Sequence record: LC788705.1
Strand: one strand, 5' to 3'
Origin: Escherichia coli phage NG_A1
DNA length: 64,000 nucleotides
Shown here: positions 685 through 49,732 of the stretch, in pieces
Layout: every line of letters begins with the position of its first letter
Numbering within the stretch: position 1 is the stretch's first letter
Program-made: the position numbers and the translations under genes
The notes under the pieces: generated by a model
Database searches by the model: none
The model's input: the letters and a program-made list of their open reading frames with translations, nothing else
Told to the model about the DNA's origin: nothing

Positions 685-2741
685 TGATTTCAAATAATGC
701 ACCAGCCAAAATGGTCTTAAATAGTATAATGACTGGATATACTTTGGCTTATGTCCAGCACTCCATCTATACTGATTATGATGTTATTGGTAGATCTTTT
801 TGGTTAAAAATAGGAGAAAGTATAGATAGACGTGATTACACCGGTATAGATACTTTCTTCGTAATGATTAATAATCTAACCCCCTCTACCTCCTATGAGA
901 TTCAGGGGGCTTTCTATGACTCAATTATTGACTCAGAGCTTTTAAATGCAAAAATTGGTATCAACCTCTCTAATGAAACTAACTTTAGAACAAAGGAAAA
1001 GCCAATAATTGTTGCAGCAAGATCTGAATCAGAACCCGTCGACGTAGGTGTTGGTGCTCCAATAGTTGTTGTAGATACTACTGGTGAAGCTAGTTACTGC
1101 ACTATTGAATTAAAAAGTACTGCATCAGAAGATAGTGAATGGGTTAAGTATTATATAGGTGCGCTGGGACCTACTATCAAATTTGGTGGTGTTCCTGTTG
1201 GTGACTATAAGATCAGAATATCTGGTCAAGTTACGATGCCAGATGGTGTTACAGTTGACTCATCTGGTTATTATGAATATCCTAGCGTTTTCACTGTAGC
1301 TTATAATTTCGTACCCCCTACTGCACCTACTAACATTGCCTTTAAAGCTGCACGAATTGCAGATGGTAAGGAACGATATGATGTTAGAATAGAATGGGAC
1401 TGGGAACGTGGTGCTGGTGCTAATGTCCGTGAATTTCTGGTTACTTATATAAACTCTGAAGAATATGCCAAGACTGGCTGGGCTAAAGCTCAAAAGATAA
1501 ACGTTGGAGCTGCTAGAGCTGCAACGATTATATCATTCCCATGGAAAGTTGAGCATACTTTTAAGGTATCATCAATTGCCTGGGGACCAAATAAGCAAGA
1601 TATAACAGAATCAGCTCCTGCAACATTTATATTGAATGAAGATACTCCTCTAGACAACAGTTTTGTCAATGAGACGGGTATTGATGTTAATTATGCCTTT
1701 ATTAAGGGCAGCATGAAAGATGGAGAAATCTGGAGACAGACATTCTTAATCGACGCAGCTACTGGTGCTATTAACATTGGTCTGCTAGATGAAGAAGGAA
1801 AAGCACCTATTTCTTTTGACCCTATAAACCGTGTTGTTAACGTTGATGGTAAAGTAATTACTAGAGATATTAATGCTGCGAACTTTATCATGACTAACTT
1901 ATCAGGTAAGGATAATCCAGCAATTTACACTCAAGGTAAATCTTGGGGGGATAATAATTCAGGTATTTGGATGGGTATGGATAATACCTCTGCCAAAGCT
2001 AAACTAGACATTGGTAATGCTACACAATGGATACGTTATGATGGTACTACTTTGCGTATCTCTAGTGGTGTAGTAATTGGAACACCAAATGGTGACGTAG
2101 ATATTGAAACTGGTTTACAAGGTAAACAGACAGTATTTGTTTATAAGTTAGCAACATCTCTACCTGCTAAACCACTAGAACAAGATTATCCGCCTCCTGG
2201 TTGGTCAAAAACTCCACCTAACCGTACAGATATGACACAGAATATCTATGCCACTACAGGTACGCTTGATCCCGTTACTAACAAACTTCTTGAAGGTACT
2301 AGCTGGTCTGATGTAGTTCAGTGGAGTGGTACTGAGGGTACTATAGGACATGATGGACAACGTGGTCCTGGAATGTACTCCTTAGGTATTCCTGGTCTTG
2401 GGGGCTGGGATGATGGGCAGGCTAATGCCTTCTTCCAGAATAACTTTGGTAGTCCTCCTGTTAGATATGATGTATTAACCGAATTTAATAGTAATGCTCC
2501 ACAATCAGCATTTACAAGGCAATGGAATGGGTCTGGTTGGGTTAGCCCTGCAATGGTTCTCCACGGAAACATGATTGTTAATGGGACGGTGACGGCAGAT
2601 AAAATTGTAGCAGGAAATGCTTTCTTATCTCAGATCGGTGTTAACATCATTTATGATAGAAATGCTGCGTTATCCGGGAATCCTGAGGCATACTACAAGA
2701 TGAAGATAGACCTAAATAGTGGGTATATCCATATAAGGTAA
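684..2741 (+). CDS. Tail tip/central fibre protein with FN3-like domain (T5 pb4-like)
   Basis: About 685 aa from ATG 684 overlapping upstream stop (TAATG); FN3-like segment (RYDVRIEWDWERGAGANVREFLVTY); Gly/Thr/Asn-rich beta-rich C-terminus; sits in tail gene block. Confidence 0.5.
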   Translation: MISNNAPAKMVLNSIMTGYTLAYVQHSIYTDYDVIGRSFWLKIGESIDRRDYTGIDTFFVMINNLTPSTSYEIQGAFYDSIIDSELLNAKIGINLSNETNFRTKEKPIIVAARSESEPVDVGVGAPIVVVDTTGEASYCTIELKSTASEDSEWVKYYIGALGPTIKFGGVPVGDYKIRISGQVTMPDGVTVDSSGYYEYPSVFTVAYNFVPPTAPTNIAFKAARIADGKERYDVRIEWDWERGAGANVREFLVTYINSEEYAKTGWAKAQKINVGAARAATIISFPWKVEHTFKVSSIAWGPNKQDITESAPATFILNEDTPLDNSFVNETGIDVNYAFIKGSMKDGEIWRQTFLIDAATGAINIGLLDEEGKAPISFDPINRVVNVDGKVITRDINAANFIMTNLSGKDNPAIYTQGKSWGDNNSGIWMGMDNTSAKAKLDIGNATQWIRYDGTTLRISSGVVIGTPNGDVDIETGLQGKQTVFVYKLATSLPAKPLEQDYPPPGWSKTPPNRTDMTQNIYATTGTLDPVTNKLLEGTSWSDVVQWSGTEGTIGHDGQRGPGMYSLGIPGLGGWDDGQANAFFQNNFGSPPVRYDVLTEFNSNAPQSAFTRQWNGSGWVSPAMVLHGNMIVNGTVTADKIVAGNAFLSQIGVNIIYDRNAALSGNPEAYYKMKIDLNSGYIHIR

Positions 2742-2747
2742 TAAATA

Positions 2748-3083
2748 ATGAGTACTGAAAATAGAGTTATAGACTTAGTGATAGATGAGAAAGTACCTTA
2801 TGGTCTAATGATGCAATTCTTAGATGTTGATGATAGTACTTATCCACCTACAAATACCCCTGTTAACTTAACGGGGTATTCTCTAAGGGGTACTATAAAG
2901 GCCGGGCTTGATGAGAATGCGGAAACTTTGGCATCTTTTACTACTAAAATTATTGATGCTGCTCAAGGTGCCATAGCTATAAGTTTACCTGTAGAGGCGG
3001 TAGATAATATTGGTGAAAAAGCTACCAAAGAGAGAGAGATAAGTATAACCCTCGCCAACGTTTTGCAGGATACTATGATATAA
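2748..3083 (+). CDS. Small tail-associated protein (possible collar/Ig-like protein)
   Basis: 111-aa ORF tightly packed between tail-tip and fibre genes; no catalytic motif. Confidence 0.4.
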
Positions 3084-3171
3084 TTATGACACGAGATGTC
3101 ATAGGATCAGCTATTAGCTCTTTTCGTATAATGGAGGGTAAAGTATTTATCAGTGATGGGGTAACTAGATA

Positions 3172-5226
3172 ATGGCAATAACTACTAAGATTATTGTACA
3201 ACAAATATTAAATATTGATGATACTAAAGCTACTGCTAGTAAATTTCCTAGATACACAGTAACTCTTGGAAATTCTATTAGCTCTATTACTGCTAATGAG
3301 TTAGTATCCTCTATAGAGGCCGCTGCTAAATCTGCTGCGGCTGCAAAAGATTCTGAAATAGCTGCTAAAACCTCAGAACTTAATGCTAAGAATTCGGAGC
3401 AGGAAGCTGCTATTTCTGCCGGGGCTTCAGAAGCTTCTGCTACTCAGTCTGCTACATCTGCTACTCAATCTGCTGCATCAGCTGATAAATCTGCAGAATC
3501 AGCCGCAGCAGCTAAAGTATCCGAGACTAATGCGAAGGCTAGTGAAACTAATGCTGCAGGATCTGCAACTTCTGCCAACCAATCTGTAACTACTATTCAA
3601 GGGCTTAAATCAGATGTTGAACAATTAAAATCTGATACCCAGGCCATTAAAAATAGTGCTGTAACAGAGACAGCAGCTTTAAAAGCAGATGTTGAGCAAT
3701 TAAAAACAGATACACAAGGTATTAAGGATAGCACGGTATCTGAGACAACAACTTTAAAAAACCAAGCTGCAACTTCTGCAACTAGTGCTGCTAATTCTGC
3801 TACTGAAGCAGGAAAACAAGCTACTAGTGCTGCCAATAGTGCTAATACTGCTAAAACTGAAGCCGACCGTTCAAAAACTGAGGCTGATAGATCAGAAGCT
3901 GCTGCTAATTCTACCCCCGACATTCAACCTCTTCCAGATGTATGGATACCGTTTAATGATTCTCTAGATATGATCACCGGCTTTGCACCAGGCTATAAAA
4001 AAATAACAGTTGGTGATGAGGAAATAACACTGCCTAGCGACAAGATTGTTAGCTTTACTCGTGCATCAACTGCGACCTATATCAATAAGTCCGGTATATT
4101 GACCATTGCTGAAGTTGACGAACCGCGATTTGAACGTGAAGGTTTGCTGATTGAAGGACAAAGAACTAACCTGCTAATCAATTCAACTGATCCGACTAAA
4201 TGGAACAAGTCATCAAATATGATCTTAGATAGATCAGGTGTAGATGATTTCGGATTCCAGTACGCAAAATTTACATTAAAACCAGAAATGGTAGGGCAAA
4301 CTTCAGCGATTAACATAGTAACCGTTTCCGGCAGCAGAGGTTTTGATGTAACAGGAAATGAAAAGTATGTAACCATATCATGCAGGGCGCAAAGTGGGAC
4401 TCCAAATTTAAGATGCCGATTACGATTTGAAAACTACGATGGATCTGCTTATACATTTTTGGGTGATGCTTACGTAAATCTGACAGATTTATCAATTGAA
4501 AAAACTGGCGGCGCTGCAAATCGTATTACTGCAAGGGCTGTTAAAGATGAAGCAAGCAAATGGATTTTCTTTGAGGCAACAATTAAAGCACTTGATACAG
4601 AAAATATGATCGGTGCAATGGTGCATTATGCACCAGCAAAAGGGGGAGGTACTGGTGTAGATGATTATATTTATATTGCGACCCCTCAAGTTGAAGGTGG
4701 GGCATGTGCTTCATCCTTTATTATTACAGAAGCAACTCCAGTGACAAGGGCTAGTGATATGGTTACAATGCCAATCAAAAACAACCTTTACAATTTGCCG
4801 TTTACAGTACTTGTGGAAGCTAATAAAAACTGGAGTATAACGCCAAATGCTGCGCCTCGTGTTTTCGATACTAGAGGTCATCAATCTGGTGCGGCAATTA
4901 TTCTTGCTTTCGGATCTGCCGAAGGCGATAATGATGGATTCCCTTATTGCGATATAGGTAAATCAAACAGAAGGGTTTACGAGAATGCAAAACTAAAAAA
5001 GATGATTATGGGAATGAGAGTAAAGAGTGATTACAATAATTGCTGTGTAAGTAATGCCAGAATATCAAGCGAAACAAAAACGGAATGGAGATACATACAA
5101 TCAACGGCTACTATAAGGATTGGAGGACAAACAAATACTGGAGAACGACATTTATTTGGCCATATCCGAAACTTTAGAATCTGGCATAAGGAACTAACTG
5201 ATAGACAAATGAAGGAGTATGTATGA
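3172..5226 (+). CDS. L-shaped tail fibre protein (LtfA-like) with Ala/Ser/Thr-rich repetitive shaft
   Basis: 684 aa; N-terminal low-complexity region with tandem ~20-aa repeats (SDVEQLKSDTQAIKNSAVTETAALKADVEQLKTDTQGIK); beta-rich C-terminal domain; context. Confidence 0.6.
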   Translation: MAITTKIIVQQILNIDDTKATASKFPRYTVTLGNSISSITANELVSSIEAAAKSAAAAKDSEIAAKTSELNAKNSEQEAAISAGASEASATQSATSATQSAASADKSAESAAAAKVSETNAKASETNAAGSATSANQSVTTIQGLKSDVEQLKSDTQAIKNSAVTETAALKADVEQLKTDTQGIKDSTVSETTTLKNQAATSATSAANSATEAGKQATSAANSANTAKTEADRSKTEADRSEAAANSTPDIQPLPDVWIPFNDSLDMITGFAPGYKKITVGDEEITLPSDKIVSFTRASTATYINKSGILTIAEVDEPRFEREGLLIEGQRTNLLINSTDPTKWNKSSNMILDRSGVDDFGFQYAKFTLKPEMVGQTSAINIVTVSGSRGFDVTGNEKYVTISCRAQSGTPNLRCRLRFENYDGSAYTFLGDAYVNLTDLSIEKTGGAANRITARAVKDEASKWIFFEATIKALDTENMIGAMVHYAPAKGGGTGVDDYIYIATPQVEGGACASSFIITEATPVTRASDMVTMPIKNNLYNLPFTVLVEANKNWSITPNAAPRVFDTRGHQSGAAIILAFGSAEGDNDGFPYCDIGKSNRRVYENAKLKKMIMGMRVKSDYNNCCVSNARISSETKTEWRYIQSTATIRIGGQTNTGERHLFGHIRNFRIWHKELTDRQMKEYV

Positions 5227-19087: not shown

Positions 19088-20556
19088 ATATCGCTGGCCT
19101 GTTCACCTGTTGAATTTTCAGCTTTGTCTTTCTTAGCACGTTTAGATTGAGCCGGCTTATCCTTCTCAATAGGGATAACGAACTCAGCTTCCATTTGAGA
19201 TATATCTTCCATTGCTAGATTGGTAGTGTTATCCATCCGCAGGGTTTCCCAGTTCATTTTAGGCATAAACTTCACGCTATCAGAAGAACGAGTCTTAACG
19301 AAGTCAAACATAATAGCACCTTGACCATTATCAGCTTTTGCAGCATTAAGATTAGCAGCCATGTCTGCGGAATCAAGAATCCCCTTTGACATACGTGTTC
19401 TACCATCTTGATCGATCTGGTAAGGAGCTACGCCAGCCACGTTATGTTTCTGGCAGATGGATTTGAAAGACGAGCTAACAACCATCTGTTCTTTCCAGTC
19501 ATACATATCAATGGTTTTAGAATCTGGAAGTCGGGTTTGGTTAATATAGTCCAGTAAAGCTACTGTAACTTTATCACCATATCTAGCAACTAATTTATTT
19601 AATTCTACGTCAACTGTTGTAATGGACAGTTCAGGGTCATAAACGATAATCATAGGAGTATGTAGTTCATACCCTTCTATTAGCTTACTCTCCATATCGT
19701 AGAAATCACTCATCTTAGCCATTGTATACTGTTTAACGAAGTTATCGAAAAGCTCTTCACCACCGTTGAACATTCTAGCTCTAGTTCTGGCTAATCTCAA
19801 TAGAGCTGCACCTTCTAGAGTATTATTACGCATTGCTAGTGCTGATACCCCGGCTAACATGGCTAGATTACGTCTAAATACTTCATGTTCTTTCATCTCA
19901 ATTGAGAAGTATGGAGCAATATCTCCATTCAAATATTGCTGAACCTGTATGTTTGAACAGATAATGGATTTACCAGTACCACGCCAACCACCAAGCAGTA
20001 ACGTTTCTGTGCGAGCTAAACCAATTTGAGCGTCGAACTCATTACAAATACCAAGAGCGATTAAGTTCAGTTTGGTATCTTCTTCTCTCTGGAAAATACG
20101 CATGTTATCTGCGTTGAATACTTTTCCAGTATTCGTTACTTTCTCTTCTAATTTTAAGTGAAGGGAGGCAACTCGGTTGAGAATTTCTCCCTGATCCAGC
20201 ATTGTTAAATCTTGAAGCACGTCTGTTTCTAGAAGCTTCAGGAATAAATCCTGTGTATATTCAGCCTCTAGGACTTCAAGTGCCTGTTCCATGCTCACTT
20301 CTGGAATTTGAGTGTTAGCTAAGACGACTAGAGCTTGAGAAAGGCGGGCGTTCCTATTAGCTTCAAGCATAAGTGCGTCAATGGACGGCATTGTGTTATA
20401 TTTTTTATAATAATTCTGGACGGCTTGGTAAATTGAGGAGAAAGCGTCATTAAAATGATCTTTATGCAGTTTTGAGAATGTTTCCAATGCTATTTGCTTC
20501 TGTTCGGAAGCTAGAAGCATCTTCAACACTACAGCTTGCACGTTAAACAAGGTCAT
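19084..20556 (-). CDS. Replicative helicase-like ATPase (DnaB/RecA-fold)
   Basis: Walker A GGWRGTGKS, Walker B IIVYDPE; start placed at ATG 20556 with AAGGAG RBS because the longer ORF start lies inside a terminator hairpin. Confidence 0.7.
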   Translation of the reverse strand: MTLFNVQAVVLKMLLASEQKQIALETFSKLHKDHFNDAFSSIYQAVQNYYKKYNTMPSIDALMLEANRNARLSQALVVLANTQIPEVSMEQALEVLEAEYTQDLFLKLLETDVLQDLTMLDQGEILNRVASLHLKLEEKVTNTGKVFNADNMRIFQREEDTKLNLIALGICNEFDAQIGLARTETLLLGGWRGTGKSIICSNIQVQQYLNGDIAPYFSIEMKEHEVFRRNLAMLAGVSALAMRNNTLEGAALLRLARTRARMFNGGEELFDNFVKQYTMAKMSDFYDMESKLIEGYELHTPMIIVYDPELSITTVDVELNKLVARYGDKVTVALLDYINQTRLPDSKTIDMYDWKEQMVVSSSFKSICQKHNVAGVAPYQIDQDGRTRMSKGILDSADMAANLNAAKADNGQGAIMFDFVKTRSSDSVKFMPKMNWETLRMDNTTNLAMEDISQMEAEFVIPIEKDKPAQSKRAKKDKAENSTGEQASDI

Positions 20557-42584: not shown

Positions 42585-43125
42585 AAAGTTACCTAGCCAA
42601 GAAAGATTAAAAGAATTATTAATCTATGATCCAGATACCGGTATATTTACTAATAAGGTAAGTCGTGGTAGGGGAGGAAAAGCAGGTTCACCCGCTGGAT
42701 ACCTAAGAAAAGATGGCTATATAACTATTAAGATAGATAAAATAGATTATTTAGCACATAGACTAGCCTTTCTATACATGACAGGATCAATACCAGATTT
42801 AATAGACCACAAAAATAGGATTAGGTCAGATAATAGGTGGATAAACCTAAGAGAAGCTACAAGCCAGTCTAATAATAGAAACTGTACCGCATCGAGTAAA
42901 TCTGGATATCTAGGTGTACACTGGAACAAACAACTACAGAAATGGCAAGTACAGGTGATTGATAATAAGGGTAAAAATATTTATGGGGGTGTTTTTGACT
43001 ACTTAGACCTAGAAAGTGCGGTCATAAAGGCTAATGAACTGAGAAAAACACTTCATGGTAGCGAAGCAGTTATAGAAGATTTCTATACTAACTATTACCC
43101 ACCAGTAGAGGAACTTAATAAGTGA
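42577..43125 (+). CDS. HNH homing endonuclease with AP2-like domain
   Basis: HNH motif (DLIDHKNRIRSDNRWINLR...QSNNRN), YLGVHW segment; paralog of 18566-19087. Confidence 0.8.
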   Translation: MNKKLPSQERLKELLIYDPDTGIFTNKVSRGRGGKAGSPAGYLRKDGYITIKIDKIDYLAHRLAFLYMTGSIPDLIDHKNRIRSDNRWINLREATSQSNNRNCTASSKSGYLGVHWNKQLQKWQVQVIDNKGKNIYGGVFDYLDLESAVIKANELRKTLHGSEAVIEDFYTNYYPPVEELNK

Positions 43126-43598
43126 GCGTTTTCCACATTTACACAGATGGTGCTTGTAAGTCTAACCCAGGTCCAGGTGCTTGGGGATTTATTGTCTATG
43201 ATGATAACGATGATCGTTTAGGTTCTAAATCTGGATATAGTCCTAAAACTACAAATAATGAGATGGAACTCACGGCTATTGTAGAGGCTCTACGTTGGTC
43301 AGTTAAAAAAGATAATAGACCAATTGTTATCTATACTGATTCTGCTTATTGCAAAAATGGTATGGAAAGTTGGATGTTTTCTTGGCAAAGGAAAGGCTGG
43401 AAGAAAGCAGATGGTGAAGTTCCTCTTAATCTAGAACTTTGGCAGGAAGCATTTAAATTAACACAACAGTATATCAACTTTCATAATACTAATCCTACCT
43501 TTATTAAGGTTAAAGGACATTCTGGTATTAGTGGTAATGAAGCTGTAGACGCCTTATGTAACACAGTTATTACTGAAGCTGAAATGGCTGAGATGTGA
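43122..43598 (+). CDS. rnh: Ribonuclease H
   Basis: RNase HI motifs (IYTDGACKSNPGPGAWG, ELTAIVEAL, IYTDSAY, GHSG...NE.VD). Confidence 0.85.
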   Translation: MSVFHIYTDGACKSNPGPGAWGFIVYDDNDDRLGSKSGYSPKTTNNEMELTAIVEALRWSVKKDNRPIVIYTDSAYCKNGMESWMFSWQRKGWKKADGEVPLNLELWQEAFKLTQQYINFHNTNPTFIKVKGHSGISGNEAVDALCNTVITEAEMAEM

Positions 43599-45139: not shown

Positions 45140-45841
45140 ATGAAAGTAAAACCATTTGGTATGCTAGATATTGAATCTCTGGGAACTCCAGGAGATTGTG
45201 GTACTACTCATATCGCAATGCCTTCTTTCGCTTTTGTGGCTATGCATGGAATTGATAAAGACCCTGATCTAATATTTGTTACTTTGGATGTACAAGATCA
45301 GCTTAATTCTGGTGCCAAAGTTACAGCATCTACTCTAGCATTCTGGATGGATCAAGCTAAAAATAGCCCGTCTGCTATCCACATTATGGAAGCTATGAAG
45401 GAACGTAATCCAAAACTGATTGCCTTCCAAAATGGTAAACATCATTGCACTAATAAATTAGGCTCAAACTATGCTGCCTTCTCTATGGCTCAAAATATTA
45501 TGGAGTTGGCTCTAGGCGAAAATGCTTTGTATTACGGCAATGGCCCAGAGTTTGATATGACTATCTACTCTGCAAACACGTTCCATGCTGGAACCAATGA
45601 AGAGGTAGTTCCGTGGAAATTCTGGAATTTAGGCAATGTTCGATCTCTTCGTAATCTCTGGATGCAAGCTGGTTATAGTTACAAAGATCTAGAGGCTGAA
45701 GGTATTAGCTGGGCAATAGCTAAAATGGAGAAGATGGACACTATTCGTTATGGGATCTATCCGGCTAAGCACGACCCAGCATTTGATGCCTTAGTTGAGA
45801 GCTATTGTGTTGCAGCTATGATCGAAAAAATGAAAATTTGA
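45140..45841 (+). CDS. Hypothetical protein, possible DEDD-type 3'-5' exonuclease
   Basis: 233 aa; N-terminal LDIESLG (Exo I-like D.E) and C-terminal H..FDA pattern; weak assignment. Confidence 0.4.
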   Translation: MKVKPFGMLDIESLGTPGDCGTTHIAMPSFAFVAMHGIDKDPDLIFVTLDVQDQLNSGAKVTASTLAFWMDQAKNSPSAIHIMEAMKERNPKLIAFQNGKHHCTNKLGSNYAAFSMAQNIMELALGENALYYGNGPEFDMTIYSANTFHAGTNEEVVPWKFWNLGNVRSLRNLWMQAGYSYKDLEAEGISWAIAKMEKMDTIRYGIYPAKHDPAFDALVESYCVAAMIEKMKI

Positions 45842-45911: not shown

Positions 45912-46094
45912 ATGCCAGTATCTAAAAATATTCGTAAAAATGGTAAGAAAGCTACTCGTAATCTGGGTATCCGTCGTATGGCTGAACGTCAATCAGGTAT
46001 CCAGAAAATCTTTGATCTGTTAAATCGTGCTAATCCTAAAATTGATAACAGTAATGATACTGTTCTGCGCACTCTGCTGGCAATTGGTCTGTAA
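45912..46094 (+). CDS. Hypothetical small basic protein
   Basis: 60-aa ORF downstream of promoter with AAAGGAAAA RBS. Confidence 0.45.
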   Translation: MPVSKNIRKNGKKATRNLGIRRMAERQSGIQKIFDLLNRANPKIDNSNDTVLRTLLAIGL

Positions 46095-46147
46095 TAGATC
46101 AAATTTAAACAAATTCAAATCTCAAACTTCATATAAGGAAGCAAATA

Positions 46148-46786
46148 ATGACTACTCGTATTTCTAAAACTCGCGCTCTGGCAACTATCAAATCTCTGGA
46201 AGCTAAAATCCGTAAAGCTACTGAACAACAGCTTCTGATCGCTGTTGGTGAAGGTAAGGATAAAAATAAGGTTGTAGTTGGCGCTGCAATCGAAGTAGAC
46301 GATCTATCTGCTCGTATTAAGGCAGATTTCCAATCTCTCCTAGATATGATGTCCCAGCGTGATCGTATCAAAGCTGCTCTGATTAAGAGCAATGCGGAAA
46401 CAATCGTTGAGATTGGCTCTTGTAAGATGACTGTTGCGGAAGCAATTGAAGCTAAGCGTTCTATGGAGCTTAAAGCTCAGCTGCTGGCTAACATGCGTAA
46501 GCAGTTCCATGCCGCTACGGTTAAGTTTAATACGCAGAAAGCACAGTTTGATGCTAAATATGAGCGTTTGCAGGATAGCATGGCTACTCGCGATAAGAAA
46601 ACTTCCGAAGATGAAGTTAAAATGCAGCTCAACCTGCTGGAACTCAAGAATACTCCATTCTTGATTGATCCGCTGGAACTGGAGAAGCTGATTAAGCAGC
46701 ATGACGAGGAATACCAGGACTTTGCAACAAATGTTGACTTTGTTCTGTCCGAGTCTAACGCCTCTACCTTCATTGAAGTAGAGTAA
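46148..46786 (+). CDS. Hypothetical coiled-coil protein
   Basis: 212-aa ORF with GGAAG RBS. Confidence 0.5.
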   Translation: MTTRISKTRALATIKSLEAKIRKATEQQLLIAVGEGKDKNKVVVGAAIEVDDLSARIKADFQSLLDMMSQRDRIKAALIKSNAETIVEIGSCKMTVAEAIEAKRSMELKAQLLANMRKQFHAATVKFNTQKAQFDAKYERLQDSMATRDKKTSEDEVKMQLNLLELKNTPFLIDPLELEKLIKQHDEEYQDFATNVDFVLSESNASTFIEVE

Positions 46787-47169
46787 TAATTTAAAAGCTA
46801 GTAAATCGGTAGACGAAAGCCCAAGCATCTTACCTCGCAGCAGCGGTTGAAATACGAGGTTAAATAAGACCGCTGACCATACTATAAAGTATAATCTATT
46901 GGAGATTATGTTTATTACACCAGCCTTTTAAGCTGACACGTAAGAACAAAGCGTCGTTGATATTACCGACACAACTTCAAAGATCAACATTTAAGTATGA
47001 AAGCTGAAAAGTTTAAAGAACTCAAACTTCTAAACTTCTAAAGCTAAAAGATGCAAAGTATTCGTTGATGATTCAAACCCTAGATCAAAGGTACATGGCT
47101 CGTAAGATATGGCCTGTGGCGCCTCTAGGCTGTTTATCGGTTTACTAGTTTCACAATTTAAAAATGTAT

Positions 47170-47198
47170 TTGCTAATTTATTAAGTTTTCTGTATAAT
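47170..47198 (+). promoter_or_regulatory. Early promoter
   Basis: TTGCTA-N17-TATAAT. Confidence 0.65.
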
Positions 47199-47228
47199 AT
47201 ATTTTTAAATTGATGAAACGAGGCTATT

Positions 47229-47546
47229 ATGACTTTTCATATTTTGATTGATGATGTGCGTAATCTTCATGGAATGGACATTATCATTCGAACCCCAGAA
47301 GCCGCTGTCGAGTTTCTGAATAAAACTGATACCACAGGCCACTTTGTTTATATGGATAATGACTTGGCTGTAGATGGTATGGAAGGTTATCAAATTCTTC
47401 GTTTACTCTTAGAATTTGGGCAGAGACCAAAGAAAGTGGTACTAGTAACCTCGAATCCCGTAGCTAAGCAAACTATGCGTAATGATTTGCTTGACTTAGG
47501 GTATAAAGAAAATCCCAATCGTGTCGAATATGATTGGCAGGAGTAA
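47229..47546 (+). CDS. Hypothetical protein
   Basis: 105-aa ORF. Confidence 0.5.
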   Translation: MTFHILIDDVRNLHGMDIIIRTPEAAVEFLNKTDTTGHFVYMDNDLAVDGMEGYQILRLLLEFGQRPKKVVLVTSNPVAKQTMRNDLLDLGYKENPNRVEYDWQE

Positions 47547-47551
47547 AAAGA

Positions 47552-48001
47552 ATGAAGACAGCTTTGCTTTTAGTAGCTGCCCTTACCTTCAGCTTTAGTA
47601 GTCAGGCATCGCACGATGCAAAAGAAATAGATTGCATTGCTAAAAATATCTATTTCGAAAGTCGTGGTGAGGGCATAAAGGGAATGACGGCGATTGCACA
47701 TGTTACTAAAAACCGTGTAAACTCCGGTAAATTCCCAGATTCCTACTGTAAAGTAGTATATCAGTCTAACCAGTTCTCTTGGGTATCTAAGAGACCAAAA
47801 GTTGATAAAACTGATGAGGCTTGGCAAACCGCCAAGAATTTAGCTAGAGTGATATACTACGTTGATTTACCACAAGATCCTACACATGGAGCTTTATACT
47901 TCCATAGTGGTAAAGATAAACCATACTGGACAAAGAAGTTTAAGAAAACAACTAAGATTAAGGGACATACATTTTATAAGCCTGTTGTCACTAAAACTTA
48001 A
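47552..48001 (+). CDS. Secreted cell-wall hydrolase, SleB/CwlJ-like
   Basis: Signal peptide (MKTALLLVAALTFSFSSQA), Hydrolase_2-like core (NIYFESRGEG...TKNRV...FHS); AGGAG RBS. Confidence 0.65.
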   Translation: MKTALLLVAALTFSFSSQASHDAKEIDCIAKNIYFESRGEGIKGMTAIAHVTKNRVNSGKFPDSYCKVVYQSNQFSWVSKRPKVDKTDEAWQTAKNLARVIYYVDLPQDPTHGALYFHSGKDKPYWTKKFKKTTKIKGHTFYKPVVTKT

Positions 48002-48720: not shown

Positions 48721-49732
48721 ATATTCATAAATTAGAGAACAGCGAGCCGATTACGCTGAACTTGTCTTAATGTAAGATGCGTCGAGCACTAAGATTCGTT
48801 GAATAGAGTCGGTGGGTTAGTTGTAAAACTAGTACACAGGGGGCGGCAATCCCGGTTAGTGGCTAGAACGTGTAAAATGAGGCGTCTGAAACCTCTCCCC
48901 TAAACTCTTCTCTAATTTATAAATAGTGGGGTGTGGAAATCACTTATGTAGTAACACTGCCGTCCTAGTATAATTGGTATTATCAAGCCGTAACTGGTGG
49001 AAGATGTAGGTTCGAATCCTACGGTCGGTAAGAACTGGATAACTGATGCTTTTAATGTAAAAGCTTCCGAGGTTAGTTGCGCACTGCCTAAACCACGCGG
49101 TAGTTGGTTCCAGACTAACCAACCAGTCTGCTGAATAGTTTTATTACGATTTAACTATGTCCAGGCTAAAGAAGAACTTTAGAAGGTATTCTAGGATAGT
49201 GAAGTTCTTTCTCCATATCGGAGTAGTTTTTCAAGCTATCCACAAAGTGGGAAATGCTGACATGAGAGATGTCACTAATGGTGCACAATAGCACAGGTAA
49301 TTCGCGATAACTCCTGTTGAGTAGCAGCAAAAGGTGGGAAGTCATGACCCCAAGCCTAACCGAGTCCTCAATATACCGCAGGACATAACTACTAAGTCAC
49401 CCTGACTTAAACTGGAAAATAATAGACGTTACTGTATTTTGTCTTGAAATACTTAATGAGTGAGACTTATGACTCTCCCGGTATCGTCTGTATTTTTAAG
49501 AGTTTTTACGAGAGTTCTTAAAAATACTTAAACGGGGTGTAGTCTAAGGGAGAGGCAGGAGTCTTCTAAATTCCTTTATGCAGGTTCGAATCCCTTGTCA
49601 CGCACCAAATTTGATGGTCAGAGTAAATTAAACCTACTATCTCGGTTGAGCTGTTTTAATGGGTTCGAATCCCAGCGAGGCGTAACTGCCTGGTGTGATA
49701 GAGGCATCATTCCACTAACATTGGAAAAACTA

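Follow-up and report, generated by a model that had tools for sequence, protein, structure and literature searches.

A pseudoknotted RNA of about 357 nucleotides linked to the T5.085 gene family in T5-like phages, other large phages and bacteria

The gap between the homologues of T5.085 (46148-46786) and T5.084 (47229-47546) in Escherichia coli phage NG_A1, a T5-like Tequintavirus, raises the question of whether a pseudoknot-capable sequence in it is a maintained RNA element and, if so, to what kind of RNA it belongs. The window is the whole stretch of 64,000 nucleotides (nt) of record LC788705.1 that was analysed, and positions refer to it unless another record is named. The gap is 98.4% identical to positions 43063-43504 of the T5 genome NC_005859, where it lies on the minus strand. 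We found that the initial annotation, which noted a 44-nt pseudoknot, was too narrow a reading: the pseudoknot is one module of a multi-pseudoknotted RNA of ~357 nt (46795-47151). The linkage of this RNA to the T5.085 protein family is near-obligate, and the two make up a self-contained cassette of two parts, carried by hundreds of unrelated large phages and by some bacteria, with copies on Bacillota chromosomes.

The pseudoknot and the RNA around it

In the initial annotation, ACCTCG (46832-37) was proposed to pair with CGAGGT (46855-60), and CAGCGGT (46841-47) with ACCGCTG (46869-75). All four strands are found as described, in the order a-b-a'-b' of an H-type pseudoknot. Helix a has 6 base pairs (bp), and helix b is lengthened by a G.U pair to 8 bp (46841-48 / 46868-75), leaving loops L1 of 3 nt, L2 of 6 nt and L3 of 7 nt, which are sterically acceptable for a pseudoknot of this type. 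Its parts are:

46832..46837, plus strand: 5' strand of helix a, ACCUCG (sequence, family covariation)
46841..46848, plus strand: 5' strand of helix b, CAGCGGUU (sequence, fold, family covariation)
46855..46860, plus strand: 3' strand of helix a, CGAGGU, inside the loop of hairpin b
46861..46867, plus strand: loop 3, UAAAUAA, A-rich throughout the family
46868..46875, plus strand: 3' strand of helix b, GACCGCUG, with the motif ACCAUAC next to it

The gap had also been described as holding no open reading frame (ORF) above about 17 codons. It is indeed free of substantial ORFs, but the figure was slightly low, as there is a 27-amino-acid (aa) ORF starting with TTG (47065-47148), a 34-aa ORF starting with ATG (47109-47213) that enters the downstream promoter, and a 20-aa antisense ORF. 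Neither the 27-aa nor the 34-aa ORF is kept across the family, in which the longest closed ORFs vary between 12 and 73 aa.

The plus strand of 46790-47160 folds to -97.8 kcal/mol (z = -4.96) with a centroid close to the minimum free energy (MFE) structure, whereas the minus strand reaches z = -2.2 with a diffuse ensemble. For 46795-47151 the z-score is -4.7, which is lower than that of 97 out of 97 sampled windows of the same size (median -1.0, minimum -3.9). The fold starts 9 nt past the stop codon of the T5.085-family gene and is closed by P1, a 20-bp terminal helix (46795-46814 / 47132-47151) in which several G.U pairs correspond to C.A mismatches on the opposite strand; a long inverted repeat is found at 46788-46814 / 47132-47158. 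In the MFE structure helix b is formed while neither strand of helix a is paired, so that the global fold leaves room for the pseudoknot. The sole tandem repeat is AAACTTCT, present in 2.4 copies, and the motif AAAG occurs nine times in the centre of the element against 1.6 times expected. The remaining parts of the RNA are:

46795..47151, plus strand: the whole structured RNA, ~357 nt, delimited by the bounds of P1, the fold z-score and homologous elements
46795..46814, plus strand: 5' strand of P1 (partner 47132-47151), followed by the junction GAAAG (46815-46819); covaries in every lineage
46815..46831, plus strand: J strand, from P1 to the pseudoknot, with GCC (46819-21) for the weak long-range pairing T1 and AUCUUA (46827-32) for the long-range pairing T2
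46891..46909, plus strand: hairpin AUAAUCU-AUUGG-AGAUUAU, with an AAUC...GAU form in T5-type and Vibrio-phage relatives, seen by eye and unscored
46921..46935, plus strand: hairpin CAGC-CUUUUAA-GCUG of the variable centre, with a compensatory change
46978..47058, plus strand: A/U-rich tract with repeated (U/C)AAAG motifs
47079..47083, plus strand: 5' strand of helix Pz, CCUAG, with AAAC/AAAUC before it; pairs with 47125-47129
47089..47124, plus strand: inner 3' domain, with AGGU (47089-92) / GCCU (47121-24) and the hairpin GGCU (47097-100) / GGCC (47111-14)
47101..47110, plus strand: loop of the inner hairpin, with UAAGAU (47103-08), the partner in T2
47125..47131, plus strand: 3' strand of Pz, CUAGG, plus the junction bases CU (family-wide GCU|G motif)
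47132..47151, plus strand: 3' strand of P1

In NC_005859 the equivalent of the element lies at ~43140-43496 on the minus strand, with the pseudoknot at 43416-43459, and it is without annotation in all of about a dozen records of T5-like and distant phages that were displayed.

Conservation and covariation in relatives

Among 29 distinct T5-like gap sequences that were compared, 46795-46912 and 46991-47151 are near-invariant and the centre, 46913-46990, is variable; here the hairpin 46921-24 / 46932-35 shows a compensatory change of C46924-G46932 to A-U in T5 and several relatives. Compared with Epseptimavirus, the pseudoknot is identical at 44 of 44 positions and the 3' part, made up of the AAAG tract and the 3' core, is 96-97% identical, versus 71-77% for the codon third positions of the flanking genes, a sequence comparison that indicates purifying selection on the RNA. 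With almost no variation in the pseudoknot, the T5-like set alone cannot test its helices: the change C46841U in one relative (L030) retains a G.U pair, and two other changes fall in loops. A scan of viral contigs for the conserved DNA pattern returned close relatives only.

More distant relatives were reached through the T5.085 protein, homologues of which are present in 743 phage records with at most 42% identity beyond the T5-like group. In all distant phages opened, an unannotated gap of 340-640 nt lies 3' of the T5.085-family gene; these are the Pectobacterium phages DU_PP_V and My1, the Vibrio phages JSF12 and Brizo, Escherichia phage 4MG (Vequintavirinae), Pseudomonas phage phiPsa300, Bacillus phage BC01, Erwinia phage RAY, Salmonella phage 7-11, Clostridium phage phiCD211 and Lactococcus phage 949. 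Their gaps show the same RNA architecture, consisting of P1, an H-type pseudoknot 17-21 nt later, two long-range pairings, an A-rich tract with AAAG and a 3' domain with GCUG at its end. A further 383 loci came from an alignment-based scan of IMG/VR, and 80 of them were retained. By an anchored banded search, P1 followed by G-A-(A/G) and with GCU|G before its 3' strand was found in 59 of 66 diverse loci, and in most of the others by eye; the window, with a score of 41, is among the best and carries the family junctions (|GA.., ..GCU|G). The RNA measures 264-443 nt, and P1 begins at a median of ~12 nt past the stop codon (3-36 nt in most lineages). Together, the family occurs in Demerecviridae, in Vequintavirinae, in Bacillus, Lactococcus, Clostridium, Pseudomonas and Erwinia phages, in viral contigs and in Bacillota chromosomes. 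Each T5.085 homologue examined in these groups has an RNA of 260-440 nt after its gene, on the strand of the gene.

The pseudoknot layout is present in ~45 of 48 distinct sequences, 17-21 nt past the junction, and can be summarised as helix a (3-7 bp), L1 (0-4 nt), helix b (5-10 bp), L2 (0-6 nt, mostly 0), a', L3 (2-8 nt), b' and then (A/C)CNA. The sequences of the helices are unrelated across lineages: ACCUCG / CGAGGU with CAGCGGUU / GACCGCUG in the window, UACUCCC / GGGAGUA with GGGCGAUG / CGUCGCCC in JSF12, CUUCC / GGAAG with UUGGCCGG / CCGGCCAG in RAY, and ACCCU / AGGGU with GGAGAGC / GCUCUCC in L118. In a position-constrained search, the constraints of which were set after inspection of the data, 33 of 37 sequence clusters, not fully independent of each other, beat 95% of dinucleotide shuffles (Fisher combined p 7e-37); an unconstrained search gave p <= 0.03 in 17 of the 48 distinct sequences. 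When the helix cores of 34 lineages were anchored in an alignment fitted to the structure, 98.2% of cells were paired against 46.4% with shuffled partners, 178 against 52 cells were changed on both sides and the covariation score was 1.32 against 0.24, a value that 0 of 500 shuffles reached. Each of the 10 core base-pair columns is variable in both strands and has 4-6 standard pair types. Covariation of both helices in relatives, the check that the initial annotation had called for, thus supports its pseudoknot-capable element. Loop 3 is 57% A and holds 2 G in 152 nt (35 lineages). The distant 5' domains were aligned by MAFFT at 38% identity, too poor for a second covariance model that would have tested helix a without fitting.

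RNAalifold, applied to nine T5-type sequences, returned P1 (15 pairs), helix a, the 5-bp Pz (47079-83 / 47125-29) and two inner helices, with 22 of the 34 pairs compensated. In P1 across the family, G.U pairs outnumber A.C combinations by 68 to 19, which identifies the plus strand as the RNA. The J strand makes both long-range pairings, as tested over 38 lineages: in T1 its first ~7 nt pair with the bases immediately before the 3' strand of Pz (Fisher p 4e-17), and in T2 its last ~7 nt pair with the inner hairpin's loop (Fisher p 1e-12); in the window, T2 is formed by AUCUUA (46827-32) and UAAGAU (47103-08), 6 bp with p 0.08. In the A/U-rich centre of 35 lineages AAAG is threefold enriched (179 versus 57) and present in nearly all of them.

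A covariance model of the 3' domain was built from 28 lineages, leaving out the T5, 4MG, DU_PP_V and My1 clades; its E-values are rough owing to a short calibration. Its best match in the 64 kb of the window is 47070-47142 on the plus strand (24.8 bits, E 4.9e-6). Among bacterial loci, none of which was in the training set, 77 of 80 were matched, all on the plus strand and with no matches elsewhere, the matches beginning ~180-420 nt past the end of the protein gene. A second match in the window, 19424-19469 on the minus strand (17.1 bits, E 0.0035, 46 nt), is probably due to chance.

The linked protein and the nature of the RNA

In public data the T5.085 family comprises 3443 clusters (50% identity) at E <= 1e-3 and 1658 at E <= 1e-30, and nearly all of the best 150 members listed are 202-217 aa long. 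Pfam holds no family for it. An AlphaFold 2 model of the protein (predicted local distance difference test score 92) shows a helical bundle plus a small sheet, and R9, K15, K20, R71, K75 and K103 are conserved in the family. The family (phrog_1491) is widely labelled 'tail fiber protein'; we saw nothing that supports this label. Its gene sits in the early/tRNA region of the phage, and the family is also found in bacterial chromosomes.

Outside Demerecviridae, no neighbouring gene is common to the loci apart from that of the T5.085 family, so that the unit consists of the protein gene and the RNA. The exoribonuclease T5.087, the T5.084 protein and the endolysin were rejected as parts of the module, as they are confined to Demerecviridae. 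Bacterial loci number 189 and are mostly from Bacillota. In 14-17 species of Lysinibacillus (L165 among them) there is a fixed order of a DUF1963 gene, a major facilitator superfamily transporter, the cassette and an RNA methyltransferase; the same chromosomal position in many species suggests a vertically inherited cellular copy, not a prophage. Of 38 lineages, 8 have an intrinsic terminator after P1, compared with 1 of 38 control stretches, and in other lineages tRNA genes lie 3' of the RNA. The tRNA genes are complete and nested inside the RNA at two loci (L119, 1929-2005; L217, 3698-3771).

That the structure and the cassette are real, i.e. that a maintained H-type pseudoknot forms the 5' core of a ~357-nt RNA linked to the T5.085-family gene, we hold with high confidence. 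Since helix a directly adjoins T2, a single rod could arise from T2 and the two pseudoknot helices stacked on each other, which would lock the 5' and 3' domains together. The G+C-rich helix a may hold the A-rich loop 3 in its groove, the arrangement seen in triplex-type pseudoknots. The RNA would be co-transcribed with the T5.085-family gene, because P1 is close to the stop codon, terminators are found after P1 and a plus-strand promoter scan of 46000-47170 found none; a scan of 46000-48000 for terminator-like sites was also negative. It may then be a stable RNA with a rigid, knotted core that exposes the tract of AAAG repeats; the protein encoded just upstream would be its most likely partner, the two forming a dedicated ribonucleoprotein. 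This explanation as a whole is probably right. On its separate parts, a ribonucleoprotein of the RNA and the upstream protein is a reasonable but tentative proposal. More speculative still is that the pseudoknot is the keystone of an undescribed class of RNA-protein machines, made of a 260-440 nt RNA and a dedicated protein of 210 aa, in which the working part (a binding platform, decoy or template) would be the AAAG tract, held out by a rigid scaffold, and which would span T5, many unrelated large phages infecting Gram-negative or Gram-positive bacteria, and the fixed Lysinibacillus locus.

Seen in the window alone the pseudoknot motif is unremarkable and becomes significant only with its context: 13% of dinucleotide-shuffled gaps hold an interleaved 6+7 pair within 60 nt, and the local fold of 66 nt has a z-score of -1.4. 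Several points weigh against the explanation. The pseudoknot is nearly invariant and shows no covariation among T5-like phages, U46874C in one of the relatives (L029) breaks a pair of helix b, and the pseudoknot is unconvincing in Lactococcus phage 949 and in L150. T1 amounts to 3 bp in the window (GCC / GGC, p 0.85), and the late-set positional constraints and the fitted core alignment are further caveats. As to the protein, the sole structural relative of its model is 3kdq / DUF6847, a protein of unknown function, and the family, with a median pI of 6.0, is close to neutral and shows no obvious RNA-binding character. Its putative binding to the RNA is argued from gene adjacency. A discrete, stable RNA is likewise predicted from sequence.

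Unlikely, yet worth considering first among the alternatives, is that the element is a cis-acting domain in the 3' untranslated region of the T5.085 messenger, serving as exonuclease protection or as a site of autoregulation by the protein, and not an RNA or ribonucleoprotein that acts in trans. The short distance from the stop codon in most lineages, the terminators that follow in some, and the linkage to the upstream and not the downstream gene all agree with this. However, a multi-pseudoknotted fold of 260-440 nt with an AAAG tract far exceeds what a stabiliser needs, the coding sequence that the element would serve is less conserved than the element itself, and processing of the tRNA genes nested in L119 and L217 would part the element from the messenger. 

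We consider it quite doubtful that the RNA acts alone as a decoy or sponge, with AAAG motifs titrating a host RNA-binding protein or nuclease and the protein being separate or a helper. CsrB and CrcZ are examples of such multi-site sponge RNAs, and both the enrichment of AAAG in nearly all lineages and the fact that the protein is not basic would suit a decoy. Conversely, the presence in Gram-negative as well as Gram-positive hosts means that only a universal target would do, the near-obligate association with a single protein family would be unexplained, and the conserved chromosomal copy of Lysinibacillus fits a purely anti-host role poorly. 

An improbable alternative is a catalytic or self-processing RNA in which the pseudoknots form an active site. 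It would account for the compact core, the three pairings of pseudoknot type and the near-invariant junctions (GA... after P1, GCU|G before the P1 3' strand), but none of the ribozyme families in Rfam matches, and no candidate cleavage site or substrate was identified, no dedicated test having been run.

The three weakest alternatives are contradicted by the data. A DNA-level signal (replication origin, nick site, cruciform or homing-endonuclease target), for which the long inverted repeat and the HNH endonuclease genes inserted in or beside the gap of some T5-like phages could be cited, is very improbable: the helices tolerate G.U but not A.C, the fold is strand-specific, pseudoknots and loop-strand pairings are meaningless for a DNA duplex, and the orientation to the upstream gene is fixed at all loci. 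A recoding signal for frameshifting or readthrough, or an overlap with a small coding gene, is barely conceivable even though H-type pseudoknots are classic frameshift stimulators and some records annotate ORFs of 34-35 aa in the gap, as the pseudoknot lies 46 nt past the double stop TAATAA (46784-89), no slippery heptamer is present in 46815-31 and no ORF is conserved family-wide. Chance complementarity in a gap made of spacer and promoter, to which the shuffled gaps and the weak local fold lend what support there is, is practically untenable in the face of the family covariation, the extreme conservation, the covariance-model matches and the outlying z-score. An intrinsic terminator of the upstream gene was also rejected, helix b being followed by ACCAUAC and not by a U tract.

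The preferred reading, an RNA coupled to its upstream protein gene, was compared with known systems. ARAGORN found no tRNA or transfer-messenger RNA (tmRNA) in 46790-47160, and Rfam 15 at the gathering threshold gave no hit on the gap, its ROOL, GOLLD, OLE, raiA, Y RNA, RNase P, riboswitch and ribozyme families included; at E <= 10 it returned nothing but four chance-level matches in 46700-47300, and the element was likewise unmatched in 20 diverse loci of the family. Full-text literature, of which the coverage was incomplete, yielded nothing on this RNA or on T5.085. With no Rfam match, no Pfam family and no literature found, we regard the RNA as a new class and its partner protein as new too.

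The pseudoknot itself resembles classical H-type pseudoknots (the luteovirus frameshift element, telomerase RNA, the SAM-II triplex) in its a-b-a'-b' order, a short L1 (0-3 nt) and mostly little or no L2, a G+C-rich stem 1 and the A-rich L3. It differs from them in lacking a coding or leader context, in being embedded in a large RNA and in having a 5' flank that makes two long-range pairings; the triplex would follow by analogy.

Among large RNAs, OLE with its gene oapA is similar as a large structured RNA coupled to a gene of otherwise unknown function that is also found in Bacillota chromosomes, but the present RNA has no Rfam OLE match, is shorter (260-440 nt), is mostly phage-borne and lies after its gene, and the T5.085-family protein is soluble and helical where OapA is a membrane protein. 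ROOL and GOLLD are likewise phage-borne, often in or beside tRNA clusters, with multiple pseudoknots and unknown function, whereas the present RNA is about half their size, lacks a match to them and is strictly coupled to one protein gene; ROOL and GOLLD are reported to form protein-free cages (PMC12286853). With tmRNA and SmpB the cassette shares an RNA of ~360 nt that has pseudoknots and paired 5' and 3' ends, a small protein dedicated to the RNA, and a connection with tRNA biology, but ARAGORN and Rfam detect no tmRNA in the window, and no tRNA-like acceptor/T-arm domain, CCA end or conserved tag frame is visible.

Like the Y RNA of Ro60 and YrlA, the RNA has a terminal stem formed by both ends, and a permuted tRNA-like insert in RAY recalls YrlA; in contrast, there is no Ro60/TROVE protein and no Rfam Y RNA match, and the present RNA is much larger with another core. 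The type III system ToxIN is also a cassette of a protein and a pseudoknotted RNA, mobile between phages and bacteria and with A-rich motifs, but here the RNA lies downstream of the gene and there is no array of 34-36 nt tandem repeats. ToxN endoribonucleases are beta-rich and Kid/CcdB-like, while the model of the T5.085-family protein is mainly helical. AcrIIIA1, known from a phage protein-RNA complex in which this 10-kDa protein binds host t(m)RNA fragments (PMC11662646), is unrelated.

T5 is a classic model phage, yet this RNA is unannotated in the records displayed. If the explanation holds, a protein family of at least 1,600-3,400 clusters (50% identity) and an RNA family would form a mobile two-gene cassette that spans phage families and bacterial phyla, often beside tRNA genes, and the short list of large bacterial and phage RNAs with complex folds would gain a member with an obvious protein partner. 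The machine proposed above, if real, would have a standing comparable to tmRNA-SmpB, Ro-Y RNA and OLE-OapA. The 'tail fiber protein' label would be corrected in many of the 743 matching phage records. As T5 and E. coli are easily manipulated, the function is directly testable.

Neighbouring genes and other observations

The RNA is flanked by the following features:

46148..46786, plus strand: T5.085-family gene (212 aa), the constant upstream partner of the RNA; T5.085 in NC_005859, phrog_1491
47155..47224, plus strand: T5 early promoter with TTGCTA (47170-75), a 17-nt spacing and TATAAT (47193-98); serves the downstream cREC_REC gene and lies outside the RNA

The final 75 nt of the gap are this early promoter, which is annotated in both T5 records and has related copies at other T5 promoters. 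The promoter is flanked by a 17-nt inverted repeat of 94% (47154-47170 / 47196-47212), which yields a strong AT hairpin whenever the gap is folded. This AT-rich hairpin (47154-47212) was rejected as a part of the RNA, since it belongs to the recurring T5 early promoters; it inflates folds of the whole gap. The T5.084 homologue downstream encodes a Pfam cREC_REC protein (cyclic-phosphate-processing receiver). With it, a gene for an Rv2179c-like 3'-5' exoribonuclease (T5.087, 45140-45841) flanks the T5 cassette; both flanking genes are themed on RNA processing or repair, a linkage confined to Demerecviridae.

A 162-aa antisense ORF (46340-46828, minus strand) runs over the T5.085 gene, and a longer antisense ORF is annotated as a coding sequence instead of T5.085 in AY692264 (T5p083) and in PP429239 (PP429239_131). 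Because the plus-strand T5.085 protein has thousands of homologues, the antisense annotation is probably a mis-called strand.

The gap looks like a hotspot for homing endonucleases. HNH/homing endonuclease genes are inserted within it in the phages bastian (NC_048870) and falkor (MT074467), an endonuclease gene of JLBYU43 (L033) begins exactly at the expected T5.084 position just past the promoter, and two further relatives (L011, L020) part from the window sequence at the same point.

In Klebsiella phage vB_Kpn_3 (L037, Sugarlandvirus), ~1.4 kb at ~1560-3010 are unannotated and G+C-richer, with a T5-type promoter before and a tRNA-Arg gene after them. T5 carries 'rnaX, stable RNA with unknown functions', of 719 nt, just downstream of the region equivalent to this stretch and ahead of tRNA genes. 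The miscellaneous RNA feature rnaX was rejected as the same element, as it lies at NC_005859 40848-41566 and the element at ~43140-43496; the Klebsiella stretch and rnaX may represent another large unexplored RNA of these phages.

The tRNA-like insert of Erwinia phage RAY (L071, ~2250-2330) lies in the variable region and appears circularly permuted, the T arm and acceptor 3' half coming before the acceptor 5' half and D arm. Paenibacillus xylaniclasticus has two copies of the cassette (L155, L162), one of which (L155) is followed just downstream by a skipping-rope RNA (RF02924, 4019-4147), with a tRNA-Ile(UAU) gene nearby. In a Parabacteroides metagenome-assembled genome (L191), one protein gene is followed by two matches to the 3'-domain model (3831-3906 and 4193-4264, starting 362 nt apart), possibly a tandem duplication of the RNA, and two type-P5 twister ribozymes lie upstream (9-70 and 575-632). 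In the window itself, 48959-49030 on the plus strand matches the tRNA model of Rfam (35.5 bits) while ARAGORN does not report it; its equivalent in PP429239 carries the label 'tRNA-OTHER', and the feature may be a tRNA that is degenerate or unusual.

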